DNA of 47,589 bases from a virus (lineage: Duplodnaviria > Heunggongvirae > Uroviricota > Caudoviricetes): IMG/VR virus record IMGVR_UViG_2706794673_000013. One strand, 5' to 3'. Below, one piece after another: positions 1,929-47,589 of the stretch. The notes beneath the pieces were generated by a model. That model saw only the letters and a list, made by a program, of their open reading frames with translations, had not been told where the DNA came from and searched no databases. Within the stretch, counting starts at the first letter, position 1. Every line of letters starts with the position of its first letter. The position numbers and the translations under genes were made by a program.

Positions 1929-1983
1929 AATTTTTCTCATAAAAATATTTCAAGTTGGCGGTGCATTACACCGCCAGGCTGAA

Positions 1984-2793
1984 TTATTCCTCTGAATTAT
2001 CGATTACACTGTATTCCCCGGTTAATACAGAGGAATCTGCAGGATCGATTGTCAGTGGTTCCTTTTCATCCATTGATACTGCACGCTGGATCTCAATTGA
2101 TACGGGCAGATATTTGAACAGGCGACGAATAGCCGTTTTCTTTGCCATTTCTTCCCAGTGAGTTACCCACGGCCCGTTATTACCAGCTTTACTCTGGCTG
2201 CGCACCAGCTCAATCTGTTTGCGCGTCATAACTTCAAACTGAGTACCTCCGTCTTTCAGTCTTGCGACAGCATAGACGTGGGTAACAGGGGCATCTTCGT
2301 TTTCTCCTGGGCGGTGTATTAACTTTTCATCAAGGCCAAATTCGAAATTAAACTCGTCACCTTCACGGACAACACGGGCTGACAGGCTGGCGATTTGACC
2401 TGAACGGCGAGCCAGATCAATCATGCCGCGATAGCCAATGATTAGCTGAACGTTTTTTTTACCGCTCTTTTCGTTTTTATTACCAAAAGGCAGTAAATAT
2501 GCATGACCGAGGGCGCTACCGGGCTCAAGTCCGAGCTGTGAACACTGTACGATTGCACTGACAAAACTCATAGTGTCACAGTTTCCTAACGCCGGAACTT
2601 TACGAATTTCTGTGGTGGCGATACGGATCATACGTTCAGCCGTCATATGGCGTGGAAGAGCTGCTGCCAGTTGCTCTTTCATTGATGGCTGGTTAATAAA
2701 ACTAATCACGTCGTTATTTTTAATTGCTGCTGGTGCACGGTTTCCCTGAGTTTTTTGCAGATCGGCTTTTGCGATTGGTGGTTGCTTAGTCAT
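1984..2793 (-). CDS. recT: RecT recombinase (single-strand annealing protein)
   Basis: 269-aa product from internal Met ([16 protein letters not shown]...); recognised RecT sequence; start overlaps recE stop. Confidence 0.9.
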
Positions 2794-5386
2794 TTGCATA
2801 TTCCTTAGCCCAGCGGGGCAGTGATAACGTCTTAATAGCTGGCCATTCATCGGTATTGAGGCAGTCAGCCAGGGTTCGCAGATTGCGGTGATATTCCAGC
2901 TGACCTGCCAGTTTTGCTTCTTCGCCCATCATGAAAATTTCAACCGGATAACGTCCGCATTCAATAGTTGTGCTGGCAACCAGAAAAACGAAAGTTGGCT
3001 GCACTCCAAACTGTGCTTCATAACCGTCACTGTAGAATGCATCCTGAACGTGATAGCGGTAGTCGTAATAAGCGGTTTTGAATCGTTGAATATCCGCCGT
3101 AGTTTTCACGTCCATGATCCAGTGAAATTCAGGGATAATTTTGTCCGGACGGCACCGACACAAAATTGCTGTTTCAGGATCTTCCCAGTAAATTGATGAT
3201 TCAGCGTGTCCGGCGCTTTCAACAAGCCATTGCCCCAGCGGCAAAGCCATAACGCTCTGATACATGAGTTCAATTTTCCGGCCTTCTTCGGCAGTGATAA
3301 CCGTTTTTCCTGTGCTTGCGCATTCCCTCAGAAACGCTTTCTCTTCTTCTTTTCCGGAGTTTGTCCGGCGGTTAAATTCAGGTGCTACGATAAAGCGGTT
3401 ACTGAATTCTTCCGGCTCAAGTACCCGGCAGTGGAAAGCGGTTCCTAAATCGAGCGTTTTTGTCTTTGTGGTGTCCACGGGGGCATTTTTACGCCACAAA
3501 TACAGTGCCGGAGTATCAGCAATGTCATCGAGCTGAGACTTACTGACACCGGGACCCGCGTGGTAATTCTCATTCGAAATTCCGTAATAAATACCTGGCT
3601 CTATGTCTTCTACGATTACGGGATCTGCGACTTCGCCAGTTTCATCACTGCAATCGCGATGCGGATCGCTGCCAGCATTCTCATTGTGCGGATGTTCAGC
3701 GCCTTCCATTTCCTCCGGATCATTTTCCTTAGCTTCAACCTGACTCTCTTCATCGAATGTTTCCTGGTATGTTGCGTCGCCCATCACCGCACCACAGTCA
3801 GGGCAGTTATCCCCGCCAGTCTGGCCGCAGGCATTGCAGGCTATTTCCGGTTCCTGTTGCACTACTGGCTCAGGTTGATTCATATCCGGGCTGGTTTTTT
3901 CCGTTTCTGGCTGGTTCTGGTACACACAATCGCGAGTCTGGATCCCCTTTACCCATTTCGGATCGTTCGGGTCGCTAATTCCGTCAACAAATTCACCACG
4001 TGATGCAGCAAGCAATTTATCGGCATCGACAGGATTTTTTGATGGAATGTTTTTCCGGGCTTCATGGAGTTCTGCCCGCAGTTCCTGATATTTCGCATCA
4101 ACAGAATTTACCTGTGACTGAGCATCCAGCGGCTGCGTGTCCTGATGATGTTCAGTTGCGTCCGGTTCCATTGTTTCAGCCTCTCCCTGTTCAACTGCCG
4201 TTGTTCCAGATGGTTGCGGTTTTTCTTCATCATCCTGTTTTCCTTCTTCTGTTACTCGCTGCGGCATCGGGGCAGAGGAGCGACCGCAGGCAATATCCAC
4301 GATTTCCGGATCAGGGTTGGCATGATCGGTTTCAGTCAGTACTTTGTTCAGATATTCAGTGACGTGCGCGGGGATGACCTCGATCCCAATTGGTGCTTCT
4401 TTTACGGACGCAACCACGATGGCGCGGGAATAATCCAGCCCGCCAGGCATGGTGATGAATTTGTCGCGGAAAACAGAAAAGGGCGGTTTATTTTCAGCGA
4501 TAATTTCCTCAATGCGTTTAGCGTGTGCCGGATGAAGGTTATAGATGTCCAGATCCATTGAACGGGCCAGTACGCCAGTGGCTACGTCCCGCGCCAGTGA
4601 CGTCAGATCGTGTACGAAACCTTCGCCGCGATCGGTGAGGTTTCCGCCGCCAGCATTAGCACCGGAAGCCGTGCGAGTGATGTGTGAAACACGATTACCC
4701 TTCATCCACTCTTTTGTCAGCAGTCCTCGATCGGTGTAGTCAGCGTTCAGGTATGCTTCGAAAAAAGCAGTTATCAGTCCCAGGTTTGAATTACCAGGAT
4801 TAGGGAAAACTTTGTCAGTGTCACGAACCAGTTTGTGGAGTTCGCGAATTTCCAGCGGGTCGAGCAGGCTGGTTTTGTGGGAAACAGCCAGGGCAGTAAC
4901 AGCCGGTAGTTCTTCAGCCCGAGCAATGTGTAATGCCTGGAGTCCGTCGCGTGAAACGTGCGTTACCGGTTTTTCGCTGCCGTGTTGAGCAAGCCAACGA
5001 ATGGGCAGTTCCTGGCCAGAAATTGGGAGTAGCATATTCTCCTCAATCTCAGTCATGTCTTCGCCGTTGACGTTGGTATTGCCTTGATAGTGAGCGTTGT
5101 CTGGTGCTGCTCCCGGTTTTAGTTCCCATGTCATGGAGTCTTTGCTGAGTTGATAGCGTTCACTCCAGGTAAAATCGATCTCACCTTCAGCGGGCAGGTC
5201 ATTAACGACAGGAAAATTCGTGGCAACAGCTTTAAAATAGCTGCTCAGTTTTTTACCTGACTTAACGATCAGGTAGTCCAGAGTGGCACAGGTCGATTCA
5301 AAATCGTTGCTTGCCCACAGGACGACGTCAGGTTCACCGGATGATTTTTTCGCTTTCCGTAACAGGAAGAGTGGTTTTGTGCTCAT
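2786..5386 (-). CDS. recE: Exodeoxyribonuclease VIII (RecE)
   Basis: 866-aa ORF immediately upstream of recT on same strand; acidic/low-complexity middle region and C-terminal nuclease domain as in RecE. Confidence 0.9.
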
Positions 5387-14895: not shown

Positions 14896-15720
14896 AACCA
14901 CCTCCTCCAAAACATGCATTAAAAATGCATCTTTTGGAGGGTTATGTCAAGCTGTTATGAAACACATAATTGATATGTTGATTAGAGGAGAAGATAGAAT
15001 AAATATGGTTGTTTTTCGTATAACTATTTGTTTTACTTTTAGTTTATGCATTCTGTGTGTTNNNNNNNNNNNNNNNNNNNNNNNNNNNNNNNNNNNNNNN
15101 NNNNNNNNNNNNNNNNNNNNNNNNNNNNNNNNNNNNNNNNNNNNNNNNNNNNNNNNNNNNNNNNNNNNNNNNNNNNNNNNNNNNNNNNNNNNNNNNNNNN
15201 NNNNNNNNNNNNNNNNNNNNNNNNNNNNNNNNNNNNNNNNNNNNNNNNNNNNNNNNNNNNNNNNNNNNNNNNNNNNNNNNNNNNNNNNNNNNNNNNNNNN
15301 NNNNNNNNNNNNNNNNNGAAATATGATTCCAGCAACTTATCATGTGGCTACTTTATAAAAATAATGCCCATATAAAACAACAAGCGAAAAGGATTACGGA
15401 TAAAAAAGGAGCGAGATGTGCGAACTTGTTATTTTCCATGTTTAACCACCTTAAATAATTGATGATGACGGGATGATNNNNNNNNNNNNNNNNNNNNNNN
15501 NNNNNNNNNNNNNNNNNNNNNNNNNNNNNNNNNNNNNNNNNNNNNNNNNNNNNNNNNNNNNNNNNNNNNNNNNNNNNNNNNNNNNNNNNNNNNNNNNNNN
15601 NNNNNNNNNNNNNNNNNNNNNNNNNNNNNNNNNNNNNNNNNNNNNNNNNNNNNNNNNNNNNNNNNNNNNNNNNNNNNNNNNNNNNNNNNNNNNNNNNNNN
15701 NNNNNNNNNNNNNNNNNNNN

Positions 15721-29215: not shown

Positions 29216-29977
29216 ATGAAACTGAAAACGGTCGAGATTAACGGAAAACAATACGCAGAAATTGATACTGCTGGCCTGCCAGTTTATGTGCACGACGATG
29301 GTAAAGAAATTGGCTTCGATGCACCGCTGGCGACAAAAAAAATTACAGAGCTTAATGGCGAGGCAAAAAATCATCGCCTGGCTAAAGAAGCTGCAGAGGA
29401 NNNNNNNNNNNNNNNNNNNNNNNNNNNNNNNNNNNNNNNNNNNNNNNNNNNNNNNNNNNNNNNNNNNNNNNNNNNNNNNNNNNNNNNNNNNNNNNNNNNN
29501 NNNNNNNNNNNNNNNNNNNNNNNNNNNNNNNNNNNNNNNNNNNNNNNNNNNNNNNNNNNNNNNNNNNNNNNNNNNNNNNNNNNNNNNNNNNNNNNNNNNN
29601 NNNNNNNNNNNNNNNNNNNNNNNNNNNNNNNNNNNNNNNNNNNNNNNNNNATCCCGGCAGATTTATTACAAGCCCGCTTCGGGCAGGCATTCAAAGTGGA
29701 AGAAGGGAGGATCGTTGCTTATGACGCTTCCGGCAACAAAATTTATTCCCGCGCGAAGCCTGGCGAACTGGCGCAGTTTGATGAGGCGCTGGAGTTCCTT
29801 GTCGAAAATTACCCTCAGAAAGACTACATCCTGAAAGCCAGTGGCAACAATGGCGGCGGCTCCCGTCCGACACAGCATGATATTGGTCAGAAAACGATGA
29901 AACGCTCTGCTTTTGATGCACTGGATGTTGCAGGTAAGCAAAACGCATTGAAAGACGGTATCACAATCGTTGATTAA
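29216..29977 (+). CDS. Putative head scaffolding protein (interrupted by N run 29401-29650)
   Basis: ORF from ATG 29216 (MKLKTVEINGKQYAEID...) located between head morphogenesis and capsid genes; middle part masked so frame continuity is unverified. Confidence 0.45.
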   Translation: MKLKTVEINGKQYAEIDTAGLPVYVHDDGKEIGFDAPLATKKITELNGEAKNHRLAKEAAEXXXXXXXXXXXXXXXXXXXXXXXXXXXXXXXXXXXXXXXXXXXXXXXXXXXXXXXXXXXXXXXXXXXXXXXXXXXXXXXXXXXXIPADLLQARFGQAFKVEEGRIVAYDASGNKIYSRAKPGELAQFDEALEFLVENYPQKDYILKASGNNGGGSRPTQHDIGQKTMKRSAFDALDVAGKQNALKDGITIVD

Positions 29978-32597: not shown

Positions 32598-33088
32598 AGT
32601 TTACTGAAATCAGAAATACGGTTATTTCCAGAATGACGGCACAGACGATTATTGATGGAAAAGACGTATTGTATCCGAACGGGCCAACGTTCGATCCTTC
32701 CGGTAAGTTAATCTGGGCGCGGTTAAGTANNNNNNNNNNNNNNNNNNNNNNNNNNNNNNNNNNNNNNNNNNNNNNNNNNNNNNNNNNNNNNNNNNNNNNN
32801 NNNNNNNNNNNNNNNNNNNNNNNNNNNNNNNNNNNNNNNNNNNNNNNNNNNNNNNNNNNNNNNNNNNNNNNNNNNNNNNNNNNNNNNNNNNNNNNNNNNN
32901 NNNNNNNNNNNNNNNNNNNNNNNNNNNNNNNNNNNNNNNNNNNNNNNNNNNNNNNNNNNNNNNNNNNNNNNNNNNNNNNNNNNNNNNNNNNNNNNNNNNN
33001 NNNNNNNNNNNNNNNNNNNNNNNNNNNNNNNNNNNNNNNNNNNNNNNNNNNNNNNNNATCGCGCGCTCTAGCGCAATTAATGACATAG
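32594..33088 (+). CDS. Putative tail terminator/tail component (interrupted by N run 32730-33057)
   Basis: ORF beginning MKFTEIRNTVISRMTAQTIIDGKDVLYPNGPTFDPSGKLIWARLS then masked; boundaries uncertain. Confidence 0.3.
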   Translation: MKFTEIRNTVISRMTAQTIIDGKDVLYPNGPTFDPSGKLIWARLSXXXXXXXXXXXXXXXXXXXXXXXXXXXXXXXXXXXXXXXXXXXXXXXXXXXXXXXXXXXXXXXXXXXXXXXXXXXXXXXXXXXXXXXXXXXXXXXXXXXXXXXXXXXXXXSRALAQLMT

Positions 33089-33097
33089 GAGGCTCCT

Positions 33098-33526
33098 GTG
33101 AGTTCAGGTGCAAAGGTTATCTCGGCATTTATCCGGGAGACGGTTGCAGGCACTACGCCAGCAAGTGGTGACTGGAGTTTATTAAAACGCACAAGCTGGG
33201 GAGTAAAACCCNNNNNNNNNNNNNNNNNNNNNNNNNNNNNNNNNNNNNNNNNNNNNNNNNNNNNNNNNNNNNNNNNNNNNNNNNNNNNNNNNNNNNNNNN
33301 NNNNNNNNNNNNNNNNNNNNNNNNNNNNNNNNNNNNNNNNNNNNNNNNNNNNNNNNNNNNNNNNNNNNNNNNNNNNNNNNNNNNNNNNNNNNNNNNNNNN
33401 NNNNNNNNNNNNNNNNNNNNNNNNNNNNNNNNNNNNNNNNNNNNNNNNNNNNNNNNNNNNNNNNNNNNNNNNNNNNNNNNNNNNNNNNGGAGCGCAGGTT
33501 GGCTCATGGAAAATGCAGATCCCTAA
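33098..33526 (+). CDS. Putative tail structural protein (interrupted by N run 33212-33488)
   Basis: ORF beginning MSSGAKVISAFIRETVAGTTPASGDWSLLKRTSWGVKP then masked; boundaries uncertain. Confidence 0.3.
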   Translation: MSSGAKVISAFIRETVAGTTPASGDWSLLKRTSWGVKPXXXXXXXXXXXXXXXXXXXXXXXXXXXXXXXXXXXXXXXXXXXXXXXXXXXXXXXXXXXXXXXXXXXXXXXXXXXXXXXXXXXXXXXXXXXXXSAGWLMENADP

Positions 33527-35077: not shown

Positions 35078-38000
35078 ATGGCAGAGCAAACCTCGCGTCT
35101 CGCAATAATTATTGATAGCACTGGAGCGAAAAATAATGCTGACAATCTGACCTCCTCATTAGTCAAAATGACGCAGGCTGGGGAAACTGCTGCAAATAGC
35201 GCAGGGAAAGTGACTAAGGCAACAGAAGATGAGAAGAACGCGCTCGCAAAATTAAAAGCAGCTATTGATCCAGTTGGTGCCGCAATTGATACTGTCGGTC
35301 GACGCTATTCTGAATTAAAGAAATTTTTCGATAAAGGGCTTATTGATAAAGAAGAATATGAATTTCTTGTCCGTAAACTTAATGAAACCACAGAGGAATT
35401 GAGCGGGGTTGCGCAAGCGCAGAGAGAAGCCGAGAAGGCCGGAAAACTTGCTGCCGCCCAGCAGGAAGCGCAGGCTCAGGCCTTTCAAAGAATGCTGGAC
35501 AAGATCGACCCTCTGGCTGCGGCGCTAAGAAATCTTGAACAACAGCATGATGAACTTAATGCTGCGTTTGCATCCGGGAAAATAAATGGTTCTCAGTTTG
35601 AGAATTATAGCCGAAAAATACAGGAAACACGGCGAGAGCTTACCGGAGAGGCTCAGGCAGAGCGAGAAGCAGCAAAAGCGCATGATGAACAGGTTGTTGC
35701 TTTGCAACGTCTGATTGCTCAACTTGATCCTGTCGGAACTGCTTTTAATCGTCTGGTAGAACAACAGAAACAGCTCAATGAAGCAAAAGCTAAGGGGATG
35801 CTTTCTCCTGAAATGTATGAGGAGCTTTCTGGAAAACTTCGTGCTATGCGGAGTGAGCTTGAGGTTACTCAATCACAATTAAGCAAAACCGGAATGTCGG
35901 CAAAACAAACGGCTTTTGCTATGCGCATGTTGCCTGTACAAATGACGGATATTGTTGTTGGGTTGTCCACTGGTCAGTCGCCATTTATGGTGTTAATGCA
36001 GCAGGGCGGCCAGCTAAAAGATATGTTCGGTGGGATTGGCCCGGCGATCAAAGGTGTAGGTTCTTATGTGCTGGGATTAATTAATCCTTTTACCCTGGCC
36101 GCAGCAGCCGTTGGGGTCTTAGGACTGGCTTACTATAAAGGCTCTCAGGAGCAGGACGAATTTAATAAATCTCTTATTCTTACCGGAAATCAGTTGGGGA
36201 CAACCAGCGGGCAATTGGGCGATATAGCTCAACGTGCCGGGAATGCGGCTGATTCGACAACTGGTGCTGCGGCGGCAGTATTAAATCAGCTTGTGCGTTC
36301 GGGAAAGGTAGCGAGCAGTTCGCTGGAGCAAGTGACGACAGCGATAGTAAAAACGAGCGAAGTAACAGGAATATCAACCGAACAACTGGTTAATGACTTC
36401 AATGAAATTGCAAAGGATCCTGTCAGTGCCATATCAAAACTTAATGATCAGTACCATTTTCTGACACTTGCGACTTATAACCAGATTAAGGCGCTACAGG
36501 ATGAAGGGAACCAGCAGGAGGCCGCCCGCATTGCGACAGAAGAATACTCATCCTCAATGATCCAGCGCACCAACCAGATTAAAGAAAATCTTGGTTATCT
36601 TGAGACTGCATGGAAAGCTGTCGCAGACTCCGCAAAATGGGCATGGGATTCCATGCTGGATATTGGCCGTGAGGCCTCCCTTGATCAAAAAATCTNNNNN
36701 NNNNNNNNNNNNNNNNNNNNNNNNNNNNNNNNNNNNNNNNNNNNNNNNNNNNNNNNNNNNNNNNNNNNNNNNNNNNNNNNNNNNNNNNNNNNNNNNNNNN
36801 NNNNNNNNNNNNNNNNNNNNNNNNNNNNNNNNNNNNNNNNNNNNNNNNNNNNNNNNNNNNNNNNNNNNNNNNNNNNNNNNNNNNNNNNNNNNNNNNNNNN
36901 NNNNNNNNNNNNNNNNNNNNNNNNNNNNNNNNNNNNNNNNNNNNNCCGGGAGCAGCAGAGAGCTAGTGAACTTGCAAAACTGGAAAAGCTAAAGAATCAG
37001 TATTCAAAGGAAGAATATAATAATCTTATCGCTCAAATAAATGAGCGTTATAAAGATCCAAAGCAACCAAAGGCGAAAGGTTATTCTGATGATGCAGCCC
37101 AACGAATGATTGATCATCTGAATCAACAGAATGCGTTACTAAGTTCACAAGCTGAGTTGACCGTTAAATTAAGTTCCTCTGAACAGGAACTGGTTAAGTG
37201 GCGTCAGCGGATTGCCGACCTAGAGTCACGACCATCATCGAAATTAACCCAGGATCAGAAATCGCTTCTCTTACACCGGGAAGAAATAACCACGTTGATG
37301 GAGAAAAATGTTGCGATTGAAAAAAATAACAGGCTAATCAAGGAATCCGCCGAAATAACAGCATGGCGTGATTCATTGCAGGCTTCGATTGATAATCGTC
37401 AGCAGGGGTATGATATTCAGATTGCTGGTTATGGGGTTGGCGATAAAAATCAGCAACGCCAGCAGGAATTACTGCGGATTGAACATGGATATAACAATCA
37501 GCGTCTGCAACTTGAACGTGACTATGCAGATAAATCCCGTGGAATGTCAGATCATGTTTTTCAAGAGAAAATGCAGGCTCTGAATGATGCTCTGGAACGG
37601 GAAAAAGAAATTGTCAGACAGAAAAACGAGCAGCTCGATATTCAGGCAGGAGACTGGGTTAGTGGTGCCTCCCAGGGATTCAATAACTGGCTGGATGACA
37701 CTAAGGATATCAGTGAGCAGATAAAATCAACCACGACTCAGATGTTTGATGGGATGACCGATGCGCTGGGTGATTTTGTCACGACAGGCAAGGCAAATTT
37801 TCGTTCTTTCGCTACTTCCGTGATTTCGGATCTTAGTCGAATAGCATTAAAGGCTTCAATTACTGGGATTTTCGACAGCATTAGTAACAGTTCTTCTGGG
37901 GGGATTTTAGGAACTATCGGGAGTGCTATTAGTAAATTTATTCCGAATGCAAAGGGCGGTGTTTATGAGTCTCCGTCATTGAGCACGTATTCGAACGGTA

Positions 38001-38311: not shown

Positions 38312-38642
38312 TACGGAAGAATTTCACTGGTTACCAGAGGATGGAATGAAAACAGAAAATAAACCATCGATAAAAACTGTAAGATTTGGTGATGGTTATG
38401 AGCAACGAAGTCCAAATGGACTTAATCATTCTCTGCGCGTTTTCACCTGTGATTTCAAAGTTGAGGCGAATGAACGTGATTCATTTGAAAAATTTTTAGC
38501 CCGGCATGAAGGCTATAAATCTTTTTTTTGGCGCCCGCCGGGTATTAACAGAAAAATCAGAGTGGTGTGTCGAACGTGGTCAGCGACAGAACATATCACC
38601 TATACCGATTTTTCGTGTCAGTTTGACGAAGTGGTGATCTGA
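38304..38642 (+). CDS. Minor tail protein M-like (divergent copy)
   Basis: 112-aa ORF with M-family signature (VRFGDGYEQRSPNGLN ... FWRPP ... DFSCQFDEVV) but low identity to the second M copy at 39721. Confidence 0.6.
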   Translation: MANTEEFHWLPEDGMKTENKPSIKTVRFGDGYEQRSPNGLNHSLRVFTCDFKVEANERDSFEKFLARHEGYKSFFWRPPGINRKIRVVCRTWSATEHITYTDFSCQFDEVVI

Positions 38643-39227
38643 TGCAGGACATACAACAGGAAACGCTGAATGAATGCATTCGTGCGGAGCAGTCGGCCAG
38701 CGTGGTGCTCTGGGAAATCGACCTGACCGAGGTAGGCGGGGATCGCTACTTTTTCTGCAATGAGCAGAACGAGAAAGGAGAGTCTGTCACCTGGCAGAGT
38801 CGGCAGTATCAGGCCTATCCCATTCAGGGGAGTGGATTTGAGATGAACGGCAAAGGTGCCAGTGCAAGGCCAACGCTGAAAGTCTCTAATCTGCACGGCA
38901 TGGTCACCGGGATGGCGGAAGACCTGCAGAGTCTGGTCGGCGGAACGGTGGTCAGGCGTAAGGTTTACGCCCGTTTTCTGGATGCGGTGAACTTCGTCAA
39001 CGGAAACAGTGACGCCGATCCGGAGCAGGAGGTGATCAGCCGCTGGCGTATTGAGCAGTGCAGCGAACTGAGCGCGGTCAGTGCCTCCTTTGTACTGTCC
39101 ACGCCGACGGAAACGGACGGCGCTGTTTTTCCGGGGCGCATCATGCTTGCTAATACCTGCACCTGGACCTATCGCGGTGATGAGTGCGGTTATCACGGTC
39201 CGGCTGTCGCGGATGAATATGACCAGC
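38642..39227 (+). CDS. Minor tail protein L-like (first copy; C-terminus lost in N run 39228-39495)
   Basis: Visible 195 aa are about 95% identical to the L gene at 40050-40748; DNA near-identical over 38940-39227 vs 40340-40627. Confidence 0.6.
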
Positions 39228-39495: not shown

Positions 39496-39724
39496 TGCGG
39501 AAGGTGGTTATGTGGGCGGTGCCGGAAGTCCGGCGCAGATGCGGCGGGCTGAAGGCATTAATTTTAATCAGAACAATCACGTGGTGATTCAGAACGACGG
39601 TACGAATGGTCTGCCAGGTCCACAGATGATGAAGGCCGTGTATGACATGGCCCGCAAGGGTGCCCGTGATGAAATTCAGACACAGATGCGTGATGGTGGC
39701 CTGTTCTCCGGAGGTGGACGATGA
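39496..39724 (+). other. Fragment encoding a tape-measure (H-like) C-terminal end
   Basis: Post-gap translation AEGGYVGGAGSPAQMRRAEGINFNQNNHVVIQNDGTNGLPGPQMMKAVYDMARKGARDEIQTQMRDGGLFSGGGR parallels the C-terminus of the tape measure ORF at 35078-38311. Confidence 0.4.
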
Positions 39725-40050
39725 AAACCTTCCGCTGGAAAGTGAAACCCGGTATGGATGTGGCTTCGGCCCCTTCTGTAAGAAAGGTGCGCTTTGGTGA
39801 TGGCTATTCCCAGCGAGCGCCTGCCGGGCTGAATGCCAACCTGAAAACGTACAGCGTGACGCTTTCTGTCCCCCGTGAGGAGGCCATGGTACTGGAGTCG
39901 TTTCTGGAAGAGCACGGGGGCTGGAAAGCCTTTCTGTGGACGCCGCCTTATGAGTGGCGGCAGATAAAGGTGACCTGCGCAAAATGGTCGTCGCGGGTCA
40001 GTATGCTGCGTGTTGAGTTCAGCGCAGAGTTTGAACAGGTGGTGAACTGA
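39721..40050 (+). CDS. M: Minor tail protein M (lambda-like)
   Basis: 109-aa ORF MKTFRWKVKPGMDVASAPSVRKVRFGDGYSQRAPAGLNANLKTYSVTLSVPREEA..., near-identical to lambda gpM as recalled. Confidence 0.9.
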   Translation: MKTFRWKVKPGMDVASAPSVRKVRFGDGYSQRAPAGLNANLKTYSVTLSVPREEAMVLESFLEEHGGWKAFLWTPPYEWRQIKVTCAKWSSRVSMLRVEFSAEFEQVVN

Positions 40051-40748
40051 TGCAGGATATCCGGCAGGAAACACTGAATGAATGCACCCGTGCGGAGCAG
40101 TCGGCCAGCGTGGTGCTCTGGGAAATCGATCTGACAGAGGTCGGTGGAGAACGTTATTTTTTCTGTAATGAGCAGAACGAAAAAGGTGAGCCGGTCACCT
40201 GGCAGGGGCGACAGTATCAGCCGTATCCCATTCAGGGGAGTGGTTTTGAACTGAATGGCAAAGGCACCAGTACGCGCCCCACGCTGATGGTTTCTAACCT
40301 GTACGGTATGGTCACCGGGATGGCGGAAGATCTACAGAGTCTGGTCGGCGGAACGGTGGTCCGGCGTAAGGTTTACGCCCGTTTTCTGGATGCGGTGAAC
40401 TTCGTCAACGGAAACAGTGACGCCGATCCGGAGCAGGAGGTGATCAGCCGCTGGCGCATTGAGCAGTGCAGCGAACTGAGCGCGGTGAGTGCCTCTTTTG
40501 TACTGTCCACGCCGACGGAAACAGATGGCGCTGTTTTTCCGGGACGTATCATGCTGGCCAACACCTGCACCTGGACCTATCGCGGCGATGAGTGCGGTTA
40601 TCACGGTCCGGCGGTCGCGGATGAATATGACCAGCCAACGTCCGACATCACGAAGGATAAATGCAGCAAATGCCTGAGTGGCTGTAAGTTTCGCAATAAC
40701 GTCGGCAACTTTGGCGGCTTCCTTTCCATTAACAAACTTTCGCAGTAA
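40050..40748 (+). CDS. L: Minor tail protein L (lambda-like)
   Basis: 232-aa ORF MQDIRQETLNECTRAEQSASVVLWEIDLTEVGGERYFFCNEQNEKGEPVTWQGRQYQPYPIQGSGFELNGKG..., near-identical to lambda gpL; C-terminal Cys cluster. Confidence 0.9.
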   Translation: MQDIRQETLNECTRAEQSASVVLWEIDLTEVGGERYFFCNEQNEKGEPVTWQGRQYQPYPIQGSGFELNGKGTSTRPTLMVSNLYGMVTGMAEDLQSLVGGTVVRRKVYARFLDAVNFVNGNSDADPEQEVISRWRIEQCSELSAVSASFVLSTPTETDGAVFPGRIMLANTCTWTYRGDECGYHGPAVADEYDQPTSDITKDKCSKCLSGCKFRNNVGNFGGFLSINKLSQ

Positions 40749-40753
40749 ATCCC

Positions 40754-41790
40754 ATGACACAGACAGAATCAGCGATTCTGGCGCACGCCCGGCGATGTGC
40801 GCCAGCGGAGTCGTGCGGCTTCGTGGTGAGAACACCGGAGGGGGAAAGATATTTTCCCTGCGTGAATATTTCCGGTGAGCCGGAGGAGTATTTCCGGATG
40901 GCTCCGGAGGACTGGCTGCAGGCAGAGATGCAGGGTGAGATTGTGGCGCTGGTCCACAGCCACCCCGGTGGTCTGCCCTGGCTGAGTGAGGCCGACCGGC
41001 GGCTGCAGGTGCAGAGTGATTTGCCGTGGTGGCTGGTCTGCCGGGGGGCGATTCACAAGTTCCGCTGTGTGCCACATCTTACCGGGCGGCGCTTTGAGCA
41101 CGGGGTGACGGACTGTTACACGCTGTTCCGGGATGCTTACCATCTGGCGGGGATTGAGATGCCGGATTTTCATCGTGAGGATGACTGGTGGCGTCACGGT
41201 CANNNNNNNNNNNNNNNNNNNNNNNNNNNNNNNNNNNNNNNNNNNNNNNNNNNNNNNNNNNNNNNNNNNNNNNNNNNNNNNNNNNNNNNNNNNNNNNNNN
41301 NNNNNNNNNNNNNNNNNNNNNNNNNNNNNNNNNNNNNNNNNNNNNNNNNNNNNNNNNNNNNNNNNNNNNNNNNNNNNNNNNNNNNNNNNNNNNNNNNNNN
41401 NNNNNNNNNNNNNNNNNNNNNNNNNNNNNNNNNNNNNNNNNNNNNNNNNNNNTGCCAGATTTTCATCGTGAGGACGACTGGTGGCGTAATGGTCAGAATC
41501 TCTATCTGGATAATCTGGAGGCTACAGGGCTGTATCAGGTGCCGTTGTCAACGGCGCAGCCGGGCGATGTGCTGCTGTGCTGTTTTGGTTCATCGGTGCC
41601 GAATCATGCCGCCATTTACTGTGGTGACGGCGAGCTGCTGCACCATATTCCTGAACAACTGAGCAAACGAGAGAGGTATACCGACAAATGGCAGCGACGC
41701 ACACACTCCCTCTGGCGTCACCGGGCATGGCACGCATCTGCCTTTACGGGGATTTGCAGCGATTTGGCCGCCGCATCGACCTTCGTGTGA
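40754..41790 (+). CDS. K: Tail assembly protein K (lambda-like; interrupted by N run 41203-41452 with flanking duplicate sequence)
   Basis: MTQTESAILAHARRCAPAESCGFVV... matches lambda gpK; the peptide PDFHREDDWWR(H/N)G is encoded on both sides of the N run, indicating a duplicated or unresolved join. Confidence 0.75.
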
Positions 41791-42335
41791 AAACGGGGGC
41801 CGAAGCCATCCGGGCACTGGCCACACAGCTCCCGGCATTTCGTCAGAAACTGAGCGACGGCTGGTATCAGGTGCGCATTGCCGGGCGTGATGCAGGCGAA
41901 AATGAATTATCTGCCCGTCTTAATGAACCGCTGGCAAATGGTGCCGTGATCCACATCGTTCCGCGTCTGGCGGGTGCCAAAAGTGGCGGTGTGTTTCAGG
42001 CGGTGCTGGGTGCGGCGCTGATTGCGGTGGCATGGTGGAACCCTGTGGGCTGGCTGGGGGCCGCGGCTGTATCGGGTATGTATGCAGCAGGGGCCAGTAT
42101 GATCCTGGGTGGTGTGGCGCAGATGCTGGCACCGAAAGCCAGGACGCCCACGGCAGCCAGTACAGATAACGGCAAACAGAACACGTATTTCTCGTCACTG
42201 GATAACATGGTTGCCCAGGGTAATGTTCTGCCTGTTCTGTACGGGGAAATGCGCGTGGGGTCACGTGTGGTTTCTCAGGAGATCAGCACGGCAGACGAAG
42301 GGGATGGTGGTCAGGTTGTGGTGATTGGTCGCTGA
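41688..42335 (+). CDS. I: Tail assembly protein I (lambda-like)
   Basis: 215-aa ORF MAATHTLPLASPGMARICLYGDLQRFGRRIDLRVKTGAEAIRALATQLPAF..., overlapping end of K as in lambda. Confidence 0.85.
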   Translation: MAATHTLPLASPGMARICLYGDLQRFGRRIDLRVKTGAEAIRALATQLPAFRQKLSDGWYQVRIAGRDAGENELSARLNEPLANGAVIHIVPRLAGAKSGGVFQAVLGAALIAVAWWNPVGWLGAAAVSGMYAAGASMILGGVAQMLAPKARTPTAASTDNGKQNTYFSSLDNMVAQGNVLPVLYGEMRVGSRVVSQEISTADEGDGGQVVVIGR

Positions 42336-42395
42336 TGCAAAATGTTTTATGAGAAACCGCCTGCGGGCGGTTTTGTCGTTTATGGAGCGTGAGGA

Positions 42396-45300
42396 ATGGG
42401 TAAAGGCAGCAGTAAGGGGCATACCCCGCGCGNNNNNNNNNNNNNNNNNNNNNNNNNNNNNNNNNNNNNNNNNNNNNNNNNNNNNNNNNNNNNNNNNNNN
42501 NNNNNNNNNNNNNNNNNNNNNNNNNNNNNNNNNNNNNNNNNNNNNNNNNNNNNNNNNNNNNNNNNNNNNNNNNNNNNNNNNNNNNNNNNNNNNNNNNNNN
42601 NNNNNNNNNNNNNNNNNNNNNNNNNNNNNNNNNNNNNNNNNNNNNNNNNNNNNNNNNNNNNNNNNNNNNNNNNNNNNNNNNNNNNNNNNGGAAAAAGACA
42701 TCACCATTAAGGGCAAAACCACCTCGCAGTATCTGGTCTCGGTGGTGGTGGATAACCTGCCTCCGCGCCCGTTCAGTATCCGGATGCGCAGGATGACACC
42801 GGACAGCACCACAGACCAGCTGCAGAACAAAACGCTCTGGTCGTCATACACCGAAATCATCGATGTGAAACAGTGCTACCCGAACACTGCACTGGTCGGC
42901 GTACAGGTGGACTCGGAGCAGTTCGGCAGCCAGCAGGTGAGTCGTAATTATCATCTTCGCGGGCGCATTCTGCAGGTGCCGTCGAACTATAACCCGCAGA
43001 CGCGACAATACAGCGGTATCTGGGACGGAACGTTAAAACCAGCATACAGCAACAACATGGCCTGGTGTCTGTGGGATATGCTGACCCACCCGCGCTACGG
43101 CATGGGGAAACGTCTTGGTGCGGCGGATGTGGACAAATGGGCGCTGTATGTCATCGGCCAGTACTGCGACCNNNNNNNNNNNNNNNNNNNNNNNNNNNNN
43201 NNNNNNNNNNNNNNNNNNNNNNNNNNNNNNNNNNNNNNNNNNNNNNNNNNNNNNNNNNNNNNNNNNNNNNNNNNNNNNNNNNNNNNNNNNNNNNNNNNNN
43301 NNNNNNNNNNNNNNNNNNNNNNNNNNNNNNNNNNNNNNNNNNNNNNNNNNNNNNNNNNNNNNNNNNNNNNNNNNNNNNNNNNNNNNNNNNNNNNNNNNNN
43401 NNNNNNNNNNNNNNNNNNNNNGCCGTTGAGGTGAACTGGATTGACCCGGATAACGGCTGGGAGACGGCGACAGAGCTTGTGGAGGATACGCAGGCCATTG
43501 CCCGTTACGGTCGTAACGTCACGAAGATGGATGCTTTTGGCTGTACCAGCCGGGGGCAGGCACACCGCGCCGGGCTGTNNNNNNNNNNNNNNNNNNNNNN
43601 NNNNNNNNNNNNNNNNNNNNNNNNNNNNNNNNNNNNNNNNNNNNNNNNNNNNNNNNNNNNNNNNNNNNNNNNNNNNNNNNNNNNNNNNNNNNNNNNNNNN
43701 NNNNNNNNNNNNNNNNNNNNNNNNNNNNNNNNNNNNNNNNNNNNNNNNNNNNNNNNNNNNNNNNNNNNNNNNNNNNNNNNNNNNNNNNNNNNNNNNNNNN
43801 NNNNNNNNNNNNNNNNNNNNNNNNNNNNGAGCCGTGTTCCTGACGGCGTTGCTGAATACAGCGTGTGGGGGCTGAAGCTGCCGACGTTGCGCCAGCGCCT
43901 GTTCCGCTGTGNNNNNNNNNNNNNNNNNNNNNNNNNNNNNNNNNNNNNNNNNNNNNNNNNNNNNNNNNNNNNNNNNNNNNNNNNNNNNNNNNNNNNNNNN
44001 NNNNNNNNNNNNNNNNNNNNNNNNNNNNNNNNNNNNNNNNNNNNNNNNNNNNNNNNNNNNNNNNNNNNNNNNNNNNNNNNNNNNNNNNNNNNNNNNNNNN
44101 NNNNNNNNNNNNNNNNNNNNNNNNNNNNNNNNNNNNNNNNNNNNNNNNNNNNNNNNNNNNNNNNNNNNNNNNNNNNNNNNNNNNNNNNNNNNNNNNNNNN
44201 NNNNNNNNNNNNNNNNNNNNNNNNNNNNNNNNNNNNNNNNNNNNNNNNNNNNNNNNNNNNNNNNNNNNNTTGACCCGGATAACGGCTGGGAGACGGCGAC
44301 AGAGCTTGTGGAGGATACGCAGGCCATTGTCCGTTACGGTCGTAACGTCACGAAGATGGATGCCTTTGGCTGTACCAGCCGGGGGCAGGCACACCGCGCC
44401 GGGCTGTGGCTGATTAAAACGGAACTGCTGGAGACGNNNNNNNNNNNNNNNNNNNNNNNNNNNNNNNNNNNNNNNNNNNNNNNNNNNNNNNNNNNNNNNN
44501 NNNNNNNNNNNNNNNNNNNNNNNNNNNNNNNNNNNNNNNNNNNNNNNNNNNNNNNNNNNNNNNNNNNNNNNNNNNNNNNNNNNNNNNNNNNNNNNNNNNN
44601 NNNNNNNNNNNNNNNNNNNNNNNNNNNNNNNNNNNNNNNNNNNNNNNNNNNNNNNNNNNNNNNNNNNNNNNNNNNNNNNNNNNNNNGTAAAAGTGAGCCG
44701 TGTTCCTGACGGTGTTGCTGAATACAGCGTGTGGGGGCTGAAGCTGCCGACGCTGCACCAGCGATTGTTCCGCTGCGTGAGTATCCGTGAGAACGACGAC
44801 GGCACGTATGCCATCACCGCCGTGCAGCATGTGCCGGAAAAAGAAGCCATCGTGGATAACGGGGCGCACTTTGACGGCGACCAGAGCGGCACGGTGAATG
44901 GTGTCACGCCGCCAGCGGTGCAGCACCTGACTGCCGAAGTCACCGCAGACAGCGGGGAATATCAGGTGCTGGCGCGCTGGGACACGCCGAAGGTGGTGAA
45001 GGGGGTGAGCTTTATGCTTCGCCTGACCGTGGCAGCGGATGACGGCAGTGAGCGGCTGGTCAGCACGGCCCGGACGACGGAAACCACATACCGCTTCACG
45101 CAACTGGCGCTGGGACGGTACACGCTGACAGTCCGGGCGGTAAATGCCTGGGGACAGCAGGGCGATCCGGCGTCGGTATCGTTCAGGATTGCCGCACCGG
45201 TAGCACCGTCGCGGATTGAGCTGACGCCGGGCTATTTTCAGATAACTGCCACGCCGCATCTTGCGGTTTATGATCCGACGGTACAGTTTGAGTTCTGGTT

Positions 45301-46471
45301 CTCGGAAACGCGGATTACCGATATCAGGCAGGTTGAAACCACAGCCCGCTACCTTGGCGCGGGGCTGTACTGGATAGCCGCCAGTATCAATATCAAACCG
45401 GGCCATGATTATTACTTTTATATCCGCAGTGTGAACACCGTTGGCAAATCGGCATTCGTGGAGGCCGTCGGTCGGGCGAGCGATGATGCGGAAGGTTACC
45501 TGGATTTTTTCAAAGGCAAGATAACCGAATCCCATCTCGGTAAAGAGCTGCTGGAAAAAGTTGATCTGACGGAGGATAACGCCAGCAGACTGGATGAGTT
45601 TTCGAAAGAGTGGAAGGACGCTAACGATAAATGGAATGCGATGTGGGGCGTCAAAATTGAGCAGACCAAAGACGGCAAACATTATGTCGCGGGTATTGGC
45701 CTCAGCATGGAGGACACGGAGGAAGGCAAGCTGAGCCAGTTTCTGGTTGCCGCCAATCGTATCGCGTTTATTGACCCGGCAAACGGGAATGAAACGCCGA
45801 TGTTTGTGGCGCAGGGCAACCAGATATTCATGAACGACGTGTTCCTGAAGCGCCTGACAGCCCCCGCCATTACCAGCGGTGGCAGTCCTCCGGTATTTTC
45901 CCTGACATCAGACGGAAAGCTGACCGCTAAAAATGCGGATATCAGTGGTAGTGTGAATGCGAACTCAGGAACGCTCAACAATGTCACGATTAACCAGAAC
46001 TGTACGATTAAGGGCATGCTGGAGGCGACCCAGGTCAGAGGGGATTTCGTTAAAGCTGTATCAAAAGCCTTCCCGAAAAAAGTCGGTACGTGGGGTAACA
46101 CGGAAACACCAGACGGTACGGTTACAGTCACCATCAGCGATGATCATAACTTTGACCGCCAGATTATTATTCCGCCCATTATTTTTAACGGTATAGCGTA
46201 TGACGATCCGGGGAGCGGAAATAACCCGGGAGGCACGCGATACACGGGTTATGGTTTTGAAGTTCGCAAAAACGGCGTATTAATCGCATCCAGAGAAACT
46301 AAAGGTGCCATTCCCGGTAGTTACAGTGCAGTTATTGATATGCCTAGTGGTGGTGGTAGCGTCACTCTGGAGTTTAAGATTTTCCAGAAAGGCAATCAGG
46401 GGGCAGGCAATATCACCGACTGTACGGTGATTGTGACCAAAAAAGCGGCTTCCGGCATCAGTATTCGTTGA
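42396..46471 (+). CDS. J: Tail tip/host specificity protein J (lambda-like N-terminal and central parts; divergent C-terminus; interrupted by six N runs and internal repeats)
   Basis: Starts [12 protein letters not shown] as lambda gpJ; central segments ([14 protein letters not shown]..., ...[26 protein letters not shown]..., ...[21 protein letters not shown]...) match lambda J; last about 170 aa differ from lambda J as recalled. Confidence 0.75.
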
Positions 46472-46493
46472 AATATTTATAACCCCAATAAAT

Positions 46494-46517
46494 GGCGTCA
46501 GGAATGACGCCTTTTTT
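46494..46517 (+). terminator. Intrinsic terminator after J
   Basis: GGCGTCA-GGAA-TGACGCC hairpin followed by TTTTTT. Confidence 0.65.
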
Positions 46518-46541
46518 ATTGCAGAAAAGCGAGAGGTAATT

Positions 46542-47141
46542 ATGCGTAAAGTTTGTGCAGCCATTTTGTCCGCAGCCATTTGCCTGGCCGTATCCGGTGC
46601 GCCTGCATGGGCGTCTGAACATCAGTCCACGCTGAGCGCGGGGTATCTTCATGCCCGGACCAACGTTCCCGGCAGTGATGATCTGAACGGGATTAACGTG
46701 AAATACCGTTATGAGTTTACGGATACGCTGGGGCTGGTGACGTCATTCAGCTATGCAGGAGACAAGAATCGCCAGCTGACCCGTTACAGCGATACCCGCT
46801 GGCATGAAGATTCCGTGCGTAACCGCTGGTTCAGCGTGATGGCGGGGCCGTCTGTGCGCGTGAATGAATGGTTCAGCGCGTATGCGATGGCGGGTGTGGC
46901 TTACAGCCGTGTGTCGACTTTCTCCGGGGATTATCTCCGCGTAACTGACAACAAGGGGAAAACGCACGACGTGCTGACCGGAAGTGATGACGGTCGCCAC
47001 AGCAACACGTCTCTGGCGTGGGGAGCTGGCGTGCAGTTTAACCCGACCGAATCCGTGGCCATTGATATTGCTTATGAAGGCTCCGGCAGTGGCGACTGGC
47101 GCACTGACGGTTTCATCGTGGGTGTCGGTTATAAGTTCTGA
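46542..47141 (+). CDS. lom: Outer membrane protein Lom (Ail/Lom family)
   Basis: 199-aa ORF with signal peptide (MRKVCAAILSAAICLAVSGAPAWA) and beta-barrel pattern ending ...GFIVGVGYKF; matches lambda Lom. Confidence 0.9.
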   Translation: MRKVCAAILSAAICLAVSGAPAWASEHQSTLSAGYLHARTNVPGSDDLNGINVKYRYEFTDTLGLVTSFSYAGDKNRQLTRYSDTRWHEDSVRNRWFSVMAGPSVRVNEWFSAYAMAGVAYSRVSTFSGDYLRVTDNKGKTHDVLTGSDDGRHSNTSLAWGAGVQFNPTESVAIDIAYEGSGSGDWRTDGFIVGVGYKF

Positions 47142-47177
47142 TTAGCCAGGTAACACAGTGTTATGACAGCCCGCCGG

Positions 47178-47205
47178 TTCAGGCGGGCTTTTTTGTGGGG
47201 TGAAT
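47178..47205 (+). terminator. Intrinsic terminator after lom
   Basis: AGCCCGCC-GGTTCA-GGCGGGCT hairpin followed by TTTTTT. Confidence 0.65.
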
Positions 47206-47215
47206 ATGGCAGTAA

Positions 47216-47589
47216 AGATTTCAGGTGTACTGAAAGACGGCACAGGAAAACCGGTACAGAACTGCACAATCCAGCTGAAAGCAAAACGTAACAGCACCAC
47301 GGTGGTGGTGAACACGCTGGCCTCAGAAAATCCGGATGAAGCCGGGCGTTACAGCATGGACGTTGAGTACGGTCAGTACAGCGTTATTCTGTTGGTGGAA
47401 GGATTCCCGCCGTCACATGCCGGGACCATCACCGTGTATGAAGATTCCCGACCCGGTACGCTGAATGATTTTCTCGGTGCCATGACGGAGGATGATGCCC
47501 GTCCGGAGGCTCTGCGCCGTTTTGAACTGATGGTGGAAGAGGTGGCGCGTAACGCGTCCGCGGTGGCACAGAACACGGCAGCCGCGAAG
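47216..47589 (+). CDS. stf: Side tail fibre protein Stf, N-terminal part (truncated by window end)
   Basis: MAVKISGVLKDGTGKPVQNCTIQLKAKRNSTTVVVNTLASENPDEAGRYSMDVEYGQYSVILLVEGFPPSHAGTITVYEDS... matches the N-terminus of lambda Stf; no stop before the window ends. Confidence 0.8.

Follow-up and report, generated by a model that had tools for sequence, protein, structure and literature searches.

Apparent internal repeats in the tail-tip gene J of a Rac-family prophage, probably a scaffold mis-join, and a receptor-binding domain of the phage 434 type

Gene J and its reading frame

The window analysed here, a stretch of 47,589 nucleotides from a virus of the Caudoviricetes (IMG/VR record IMGVR_UViG_2706794673_000013), is a complete Rac-family prophage, and its tail-tip gene raises two questions: whether two segments that occur twice in the gene belong to it, and which receptor its C-terminal region would recognise. 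Both peculiarities are present in the sequence, and neither represents new biology.

The gene starts with the ATG at 42396 and stops at 46469-46471. According to open reading frames and annotated relatives, it is part of a lambdoid tail module, behind K and I and ahead of lom and stf. Six Pfam families (FNIII-A_GpJ, Phage-tail_3, Ig_J, Ig_J_second, Phage_Tail_Tip and Ig_GpJ_C) all match a relative whose J equals the A-type pieces (defined below) of the window. By both its domain series and its position, the gene encodes the lambda-type tip attachment protein J (gpJ). The prophage that carries it has P22-type head genes.

From 42396 to 46471 there is no single verifiable ORF, and the pieces of J across five N runs lie in frames 0, 1, 0, 0, 1 and 2. 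In related loci J encodes 1131-1159 aa and is single copy (19 J genes called in 20 related loci). The region equivalent to window 42300-47589 measures 4628 nt in complete genomes, versus 5290 in the window. Most probably, the true J of this prophage is present in one ordinary copy, 3414 nt long (1137 aa), with a receptor-binding domain of the phage 434 type.

Repeats, gaps and two alleles

The first-pass annotation had pointed out two segments of J that occur twice with a few SNPs, and this was confirmed with slightly shifted coordinates. In the first pair, 43441-43578 and 44270-44407 share 138 nt with 2 differences (98.6%, E = 6e-64), and in the second, 43829-43909 and 44695-44775 share 81 nt with 5 differences (93.8%, E = 1e-28). 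Both repeats are real in the sequence as given, far beyond chance, and in each pair the copies are in direct orientation. The whole window has only four direct repeats; the remaining two (38620-39227 with 40028-40635, and 41160-41202 with 41453-41495) exist because a contig of the other allele is misplaced at 39496-41202 (Table 1). Every truncated repeat end falls on the edge of an N run and, in reference coordinates, each repeat is the overlap between two neighbouring contigs.

Table 1. Pieces of J and features around it, in window coordinates
Feature	Position	Strand	Remarks
B-type contig, misplaced, upstream of J: 3' end of H, M, L and 5' part of K	39496-41202	+	12/1707 mismatches to B-type loci vs 75/1175 to Rac-type
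J nt 1-37, codons 1-12, A-type	42396-42432	+	3' end of native Rac-type contig 41453-42432
N run of 257, replaces 409 nt (J nt 38-446), frame shifted	42433-42689		
J nt 447-928, A-type	42690-43171	+	0/482 mismatches to L022; 17/17 A/B sites A-type
N run of 250, replaces 263 nt	43172-43421		
Repeat 1 copy 1, J nt 1192-1348, A-type	43422-43578	+	0/157 mismatches to L022; 2/2 sites A
N run of 250, replaces 289 nt	43579-43828		
Repeat 2 copy 1, J nt 1638-1720, A-type, 83-nt contig	43829-43911	+	0/83 mismatches to L022; 6/6 sites A
N run of 358, probably covering a spurious join	43912-44269		
Repeat 1 copy 2, J nt 1211-1377, B-type	44270-44436	+	0/167 mismatches to 14 IMG/VR stretches, 4/167 to L022; 4/4 sites B
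N run of 250, replaces 252 nt of B allele, frame shifted	44437-44686		
Repeat 2 copy 2, J nt 1630-1776, B-type head of last contig	44687-44833	+	10/10 sites B
170 nt with A and B alleles identical; last contig goes from B to A	44834-45003	+	
J nt 1947-3414, A-type: Ig/FNIII domains, fibre, receptor-binding domain, stop	45004-46471	+	18/18 sites A in tested stretch
Receptor-binding domain, Ig_GpJ_C, J aa 1001-1136, 434 type	46058-46465	+	Pfam match on identical relative
Terminator-like hairpin between J and lom	46494-46511	+	Terminator annotated at same place in phage 434 record

The window holds 13 N runs, which make up about 7% of its length, six of them being exactly 250 long. They do not preserve true distances, even where the reference agrees fully with the flanks. 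This is shown for J by the replaced lengths in Table 1, and for the head and tail genes by runs of 328, 277 and 250 N that stand for 243, 243 and 250 nt in five relatives. Three other origins for the gaps or for the order of contigs were rejected. The gaps are not collapsed repeats in which the two alleles are identical, as each hidden stretch contains 8-21 differences between them; they are not coverage holes driven by GC content, as only two, at 15062-15720, are AT-rich; and the contigs were not merely sorted by reference start, as 44270-44436 begins before 43829-43911 in J coordinates.

What the pieces are was established with two reference alleles: A, Rac-type, from CP022457.1 (L022), and B, lambda-like, from IMGVR_UViG_2671181056_000002, which serve as proxies from other genomes and are not the source strain's own two prophages. 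Site assignment was clean at every position where A and B differ, with zero private differences, and wherever the copies disagree, the disagreement is one already known between two J alleles that other genomes carry apart from each other. This holds for 12/12 informative sites across repeat 1 (both copies) and the first copy of repeat 2, and for 10/10 in the B-type start of the last contig. The contig at 41453-42432, with the K 3' end, I and the start of J, has 2/980 mismatches to L022 and 8/980 to NCTC10444, versus 120-145/1007 to lambda-like prophages. Copy 1 of repeat 1 (43422-43578), which lies within the hub domain PF13550, matches the lambda-like prophages L005 and L006 at 100%, as a foreign allele would; comparison with L022 nevertheless shows that copy 1 is native Rac-type and copy 2 foreign. 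The piece at 44270-44436 is from a lambda-like prophage and foreign to this J gene. In the last contig, the B-type head shows 0/154 mismatches to B-type loci versus 10/154 to L022, and the A-type end shows 0/1160 and 1/471 to L022. The sole difference between the protein of the window and L022 J, R567H, is sited in that B-type head (44687-44833).

Thus, the limits of the repeats coincide with gaps, the gaps do not have the lengths of the distances they span, and alternate contigs belong to two alleles that occur separately elsewhere. The joins themselves lie under N runs and our reading rests on the flanking sequence, from which we conclude, with a probability of roughly 0.9, that the repeats are an assembly artefact, contigs from the J genes of two prophages having been interleaved in one scaffold across gaps. 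The first-pass annotation had regarded them as internal segments of J, a property of the gene that it was prepared to abandon should they prove to be single copies and an artefact. This is most probably the case, two alleles from two prophage types having been set in series.

According to this mis-join reading, short J contigs of allele A would have been joined, through N gaps of roughly estimated length, to contigs of allele B, which would stem from another J in the same sample, that of a second, lambda-like prophage. With the B-type 44270-44436 and 44687-44833 placed behind the A-type 43422-43578 and 43829-43911, the same part of J would be read twice, the apparent SNPs between the copies being allelic differences. 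The last contig would begin as B and cross to A within the 170 nt of identity. The same event would have occurred 3 kb upstream, with a B-type H-M-L-K contig wedged among A-type tail genes. Three back-steps in reference coordinates (M/L, K and J) are seen, all inside N runs; that in J, of about 510 nt, lies under the run at 43912-44269 and leads from J nt 1720 to 1211. The same pattern of A, N run and B with back-steps is found in IMG/VR contigs of other draft genomes (L031 and others), and in L031 and L037 there are allele joins with a single N. Since E. coli genomes have a median of 2 J-like places, and up to 8-19, paralogous J alleles within one genome are the rule.

Alternative accounts of the repeats

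It could be proposed that a contiguous public record was masked with N once it had been assembled, so that the runs would carry no information on assembly and the order of the pieces would be the record's own. The six runs of exactly 250 would fit such masking, as would the uniform 242-253 nt of the stretches hidden in the first 37 kb, which are not collapsed between A and B and are mostly of ordinary GC content. However, in-place masking keeps length, whereas here 257 N replace 409 nt and the 328 and 277 N of the head and tail genes replace 243 nt each; moreover, all three back-steps fall in N runs although these are only 7% of the window. We consider masking very unlikely, and even if true, the record beneath would still alternate two alleles, and the repeats would stay a mis-join, as in L031 and L037.

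A further alternative is that the two resident prophages recombined, unequally or illegitimately, to give a hybrid J with a real partial tandem duplication of about J nt 1211-1720, from the hub domain to the first Ig domain, with parts of it hidden by N runs. In its favour, the sequence as given contains both copies, directly oriented, two J alleles seem to coexist in the sample and would therefore provide a substrate for recombination, and the junction is concealed under N. However, such an event would need illegitimate joins to have arisen independently at three places (M/L, K and J) over a span of 6 kb, all of them in N runs. The reading frame is not kept, the join lying under 358 N between pieces in different frames, and the duplicated part would split the hub domain (PF13550, aa 330-496). 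The copies have no difference private to this locus, and the limits of the repeats are contig ends and not any sequence feature. None of the 19 related J genes is duplicated or has this arrangement. In 5,426 complete E. coli genomes, with 13,915 J places, the B-to-A junction of the last contig has no match of at least 99%; the best reaches 98.4%. A real duplication is, then, highly improbable. That such a hybrid would moreover carry an in-frame partial duplication from hub to Ig (about residues 404-573) and yield a tip protein of about 1300 residues still able to assemble is extremely improbable.

The probable mis-join calls for caution beyond this locus. Because an E. coli genome has several sets of lambdoid tail genes, draft scaffolds can interleave alleles and simulate internal repeats, over-long genes and mosaic alleles. 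When J genes are mined for receptor-binding diversity, such scaffolds should be discarded or re-resolved.

The receptor-binding domain and its known relatives

The C-terminal region of J had been described as unlike that of lambda over about 170 codons; the divergence was upheld, and the length should be shortened. Nucleotide similarity to lambda ends at window position 46027 (lambda 18474, about codon 990 of lambda J), and the divergent part therefore covers about 145-160 codons. Alignment to J proteins with known receptors gave, for the last 142 aa, 139/142 identities to 434 J and only 52/130 to lambda J, besides 141/142 to WP_041520804.1, whereas two 200-aa blocks upstream are 192/200 and 187/200 identical to lambda J. 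A natural swap point near residue 964 of lambda J is already in engineering use (PMC11338833). Judging from its 434-like sequence and from a divergence that sets in at a known module boundary, the C-terminal domain is of the 434 type and not that of lambda.

Dependence on OmpC is reported both for phage 434 and for lambda equipped with 434 J, and replacement of lambda J by 434 J shifts the receptor from LamB to OmpC (PMC3509688, PMC11101478). With 98% identity to the 434 domain, the J of the window probably uses OmpC and not LamB, which agrees with the earlier suggestion of a receptor other than lambda's, although the specificity is one already known. As homology and the literature suggest, the J trimer would close the tail tip and its C-terminal Ig-like domain would bind an outer-membrane porin trimer, which for a 434-type domain would be OmpC rather than LamB; this binding would trigger opening of the tip and DNA ejection.

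It must be taken into account that three substitutions relative to 434 J (V1108I, H1110Q and R1115G) are all within the Ig_GpJ_C domain and that through them the domain may recognise another porin, or only certain OmpC variants rather than K-12-type OmpC. Indeed, two natural OmpC-using gpJ variants accept different OmpC alleles (PMC11338833), and a few mutations in J can alter which porin lambda and phage 21 use (PMC11336670). Against this, the two domains are 98% identical and the exact variant is common in E. coli prophages (at least 99% nucleotide identity in 409 records), and we regard such a change of receptor as unlikely. The real J gene is thus nothing new: at a nucleotide identity of at least 90%, the 434-type domain, predicted to bind OmpC, is already present in 2112/5426 complete E. 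coli genomes (about 39%, or about two fifths), and its modular exchange already serves the engineering of delivery particles.

Among known systems, the J of L022, likewise from a Rac-type prophage, agrees with the window at all readable A-type positions but one synonymous site, and that of E. coli PM22 (WP_041520804.1) at 584/592 aa. Unlike the gene in the window, both are single uninterrupted ORFs of 3414 nt; compared with the true allele, the window has 929 positions of N and B-type sequence in place of 63 nt. Lambda gpJ (NP_040600.1; PDB 8iyk, and 8xcj with LamB) has the same series of domains and is about 95% identical as far as residue 975-990 or so, and the readable 592 aa match 8iyk_J with E = 0 over residues 547-1131. 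However, identity falls to only 40% over the last 142 aa or so, which form the domain that binds LamB in lambda, and the alignment there has two indels. The engineered OmpC-using chimera of lambda gpJ, A8 (PDB 9wca), has likewise a lambda body with an exchanged C-terminal domain, but of another allele, roughly half identical over 175 aligned aa with many substitutions (E = 2e-40). A further relative is the J of phage 434 (central tail fibre, 'h434' host range; OL657226.1, UMO75286.1). The genomic setting differs, the window J being part of a Rac-family prophage whose head genes are of the P22 type and not of a 434-like genome, and 18 substitutions separate the proteins in the last 594 aa, three of them in the binding domain. 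The two nevertheless share the K-I-J-lom-stf order, the positions of terminators, the length class (the matching relative has 1137 aa) and 574/592 aa of the readable C-terminal part.

Contig order and alleles in the J region

The two repeats that the first-pass annotation placed inside J are present, 2-10 nt away from the coordinates it gave, but they are almost certainly not a property of the J gene; contigs of two alleles appear to be interleaved there. J starts with the ATG at 42396 and its stop codon lies at 46469-46471. Comparison of the whole window with itself revealed four direct repeats, two of them outside J and both in the tail genes directly upstream, and in 4/4 the truncated repeat ends coincide with N-run edges. 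Numbered as in an intact J, the pieces follow the order 1-37, 447-928, 1192-1348 and 1638-1720, then step back to 1211-1377 and resume from 1630 to the end, with a gap at each junction. Each "repeat" is the overlap of the J intervals of two contigs, and contig ends, not sequence features, set its limits.

The window contains 13 N runs of 243-358, five of them between the J ATG and stop, and these runs do not preserve length. In the first 37 kb, 256, 243, 250, 328, 277 and 250 N stand for true lengths of 245, 242, 253, 243, 243 and 250 nt in the NCTC10444 reference, and for three of these gaps 243, 243 and 250 nt were found again in five more relatives. In J, 257, 250, 250 and 250 N stand for 409, 263, 289 and 252 nt in references with perfect flank matches. 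Since the J pieces also lie in different frames (0, 1, 0, 0, 1, 2), the 4076 nt at 42396-46471 have no verifiable ORF status; in complete genomes the matching region is 662 nt shorter and J measures 3414 nt. The runs of the first 37 kb (243-328 N) replace strikingly uniform reference sequence of 242-253 nt, and are twice paired around an island of 154-160 nt.

The I protein of the window, used as a query, led to a Rac-type prophage (L022, CP022457.1) with a single J of 1137 aa, the proxy for the native A-type allele. An exact search with copy 2 (44270-44436) led to 14 IMG/VR stretches from lambda-like prophages, here called B-type, with 0/167 mismatches to copy 2, 0/154 to the head of the last contig (from 44687) and 12/1707 to the misplaced H-M-L-K contig 39496-41202, and strongly different from the A pieces of the window. 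Contig 39496-41202 (3' end of H, M, L and 5' part of K) is B-type and wedged between Rac-type contigs, which accounts for the M/L and K repeats.

Features of the window and mismatches to the A-type proxy L022
Feature	Position	Observation
N runs, first 37 kb	15062-15317, 15478-15720, 29401-29650, 32730-33057, 33212-33488, 36696-36945	
Repeat 1 in J	43441-43578 vs 44270-44407	138 nt, 2 differences
Repeat 2 in J	43829-43909 vs 44695-44775	81 nt, 5 differences
M/L direct repeat	38620-39227 vs 40028-40635	90%
K direct repeat	41160-41202 vs 41453-41495	43 nt, 91%
Contig sequence	41453-42432	2/980 mismatches
Contig sequence	42690-43171	0/482 mismatches
Copy 1	43422-43578	0/157 mismatches
Copy 1	43829-43911	0/83 mismatches
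Copy 2	44270-44436	4/167 mismatches
Last contig, first 147 nt	44687-44833	10 mismatches
Last contig	44841-46000	0/1160 mismatches
Terminator-like hairpin	42353-42374	between I and J
Terminator-like hairpin	46494-46511	between J and lom
Terminator-like hairpin	47168-47189	between lom and stf
Pfam Ig_GpJ_C	46058-46465	J aa 1001-1136

All positions at which the A and B proxies differ were taken as test sites. The window is A-type at 17/17 informative sites in 42690-43171 and at 2/2 and 6/6 in the two copy-1 contigs, and B-type at 4/4 in copy 2; at this test its J pieces have no private differences. The last contig is chimeric, being B-type at 10/10 and then A-type at 18/18 sites: its B-type part spans 44687-44833, its A-type part begins at 45004, and the changeover falls within the intervening 170 nt (up to 45003), which are identical in both alleles. 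R567H, the sole amino acid difference from the native allele, stems from this B-type head. The B-to-A combination occurred 0 times at at least 99% identity among 13,915 J places in 5,426 complete E. coli genomes.

Probable misassembly and the rival reading of a duplication

These repeats are no biological feature. We consider that the scaffold interleaves contigs from two paralogous prophage tail modules and that the repeats are an artefact, with a probability of nearly nine in ten. Such interleaving is to be expected in E. coli, because J-like sequences are multi-copy (median 2 per genome, up to 8-19 places). A real duplication of J would require three independent illegitimate junctions, every one under N, would cut the hub domain PF13550 (aa 330-496), and has 0 counterparts among 19 related J genes (1131-1159 aa). 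That the N runs are collapsed stretches shared by A and B was ruled out, as the hidden sequence is not common to both prophage types.

Steps back from A-type J across N to B-type J also occur in IMG/VR contigs from draft genomes, e.g. L031 1-2694 (IMGVR_UViG_2693429679_000007); in the draft-isolate contigs L027, L031, L032, L034 and L037 the two types flank a single N. Mis-joined J genes seem to be recurrent in public prophage collections. Recognizing the interleaved contigs flags the scaffold as unreliable at about 39.2-45.0 kb.

The Rac-family prophage

A complete prophage of the Rac family makes up the window: intR, recET, kilR, sieB and trkG are followed by head genes of the P22 type and then by a tail tip of the lambda type. 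Positions 1-39227 show 99.95-100% identity to a prophage that E. coli NCTC10444 carries next to ttcA, between that gene and sitD. This part contains intR, xisR, ralR, recT, recE, racC, kilR, sieB, ydaT/U/V, lysis genes, trkG, a P22-type capsid gene and ydaY, and appears structurally complete, in contrast to the K-12 Rac remnant. J is followed by lom (46542-47141) and the beginning of stf; the phage 434 record has annotated terminators at positions matching the I/J, J/lom and lom/stf hairpins.

The receptor-binding domain and its known relatives

The 452 nt coding for the receptor-binding domain are found at at least 90% identity in 2112/5426 complete E. coli genomes, at at least 99% in 409 records, and in numerous phages as well, among them 434, mEp460 and Stx phages; the domain is of a known, very common type. 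The B-type J of L030 (2582-6079, IMGVR_UViG_2671181056_000002; 1164 aa) contains additional sequence and diverges strongly in the fibre (Phage_Tail_Tip) region, and its C-terminal end is a binding domain of the 434 type that differs at 15/471 nt. Judging from this shared domain, the two prophages of the sample probably have the same porin as their target.

For the J of the window this porin is most likely OmpC. When lambda J is swapped for 434 J the phage uses OmpC, the receptor of 434 (PMC3509688, PMC11101478), and a natural swap site close to residue 964 of lambda J has already been exploited for OmpC-targeting particles (PMC11338833). By analogy with lambda structures (PMC11101478), we infer that a J trimer would plug the tail tip and its Ig-like C-terminal domains would bind the extracellular loops of the porin trimer, whereupon the fibre would spread and the hub open for DNA ejection. 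The differences from 434 J in the domain, V1108I, H1110Q and R1115G, could tune the range of OmpC alleles accepted.

The proposal that the C-terminus of J is not that of lambda was borne out by alignment: the last 142 aa are identical to 434 J at 139/142 positions and to WP_041520804.1, a J widespread among E. coli prophages, at 141/142, against 52/130 for lambda J. Over the 400 residues preceding them identity to lambda J is about 95%, and nucleotide similarity stops at codon ~990. The nearest solved structures are those of lambda gpJ (8iyk, and 8xcj in complex with LamB) and of A8 (9wca), a chimera that uses OmpC; each is far more distant than 434 J.
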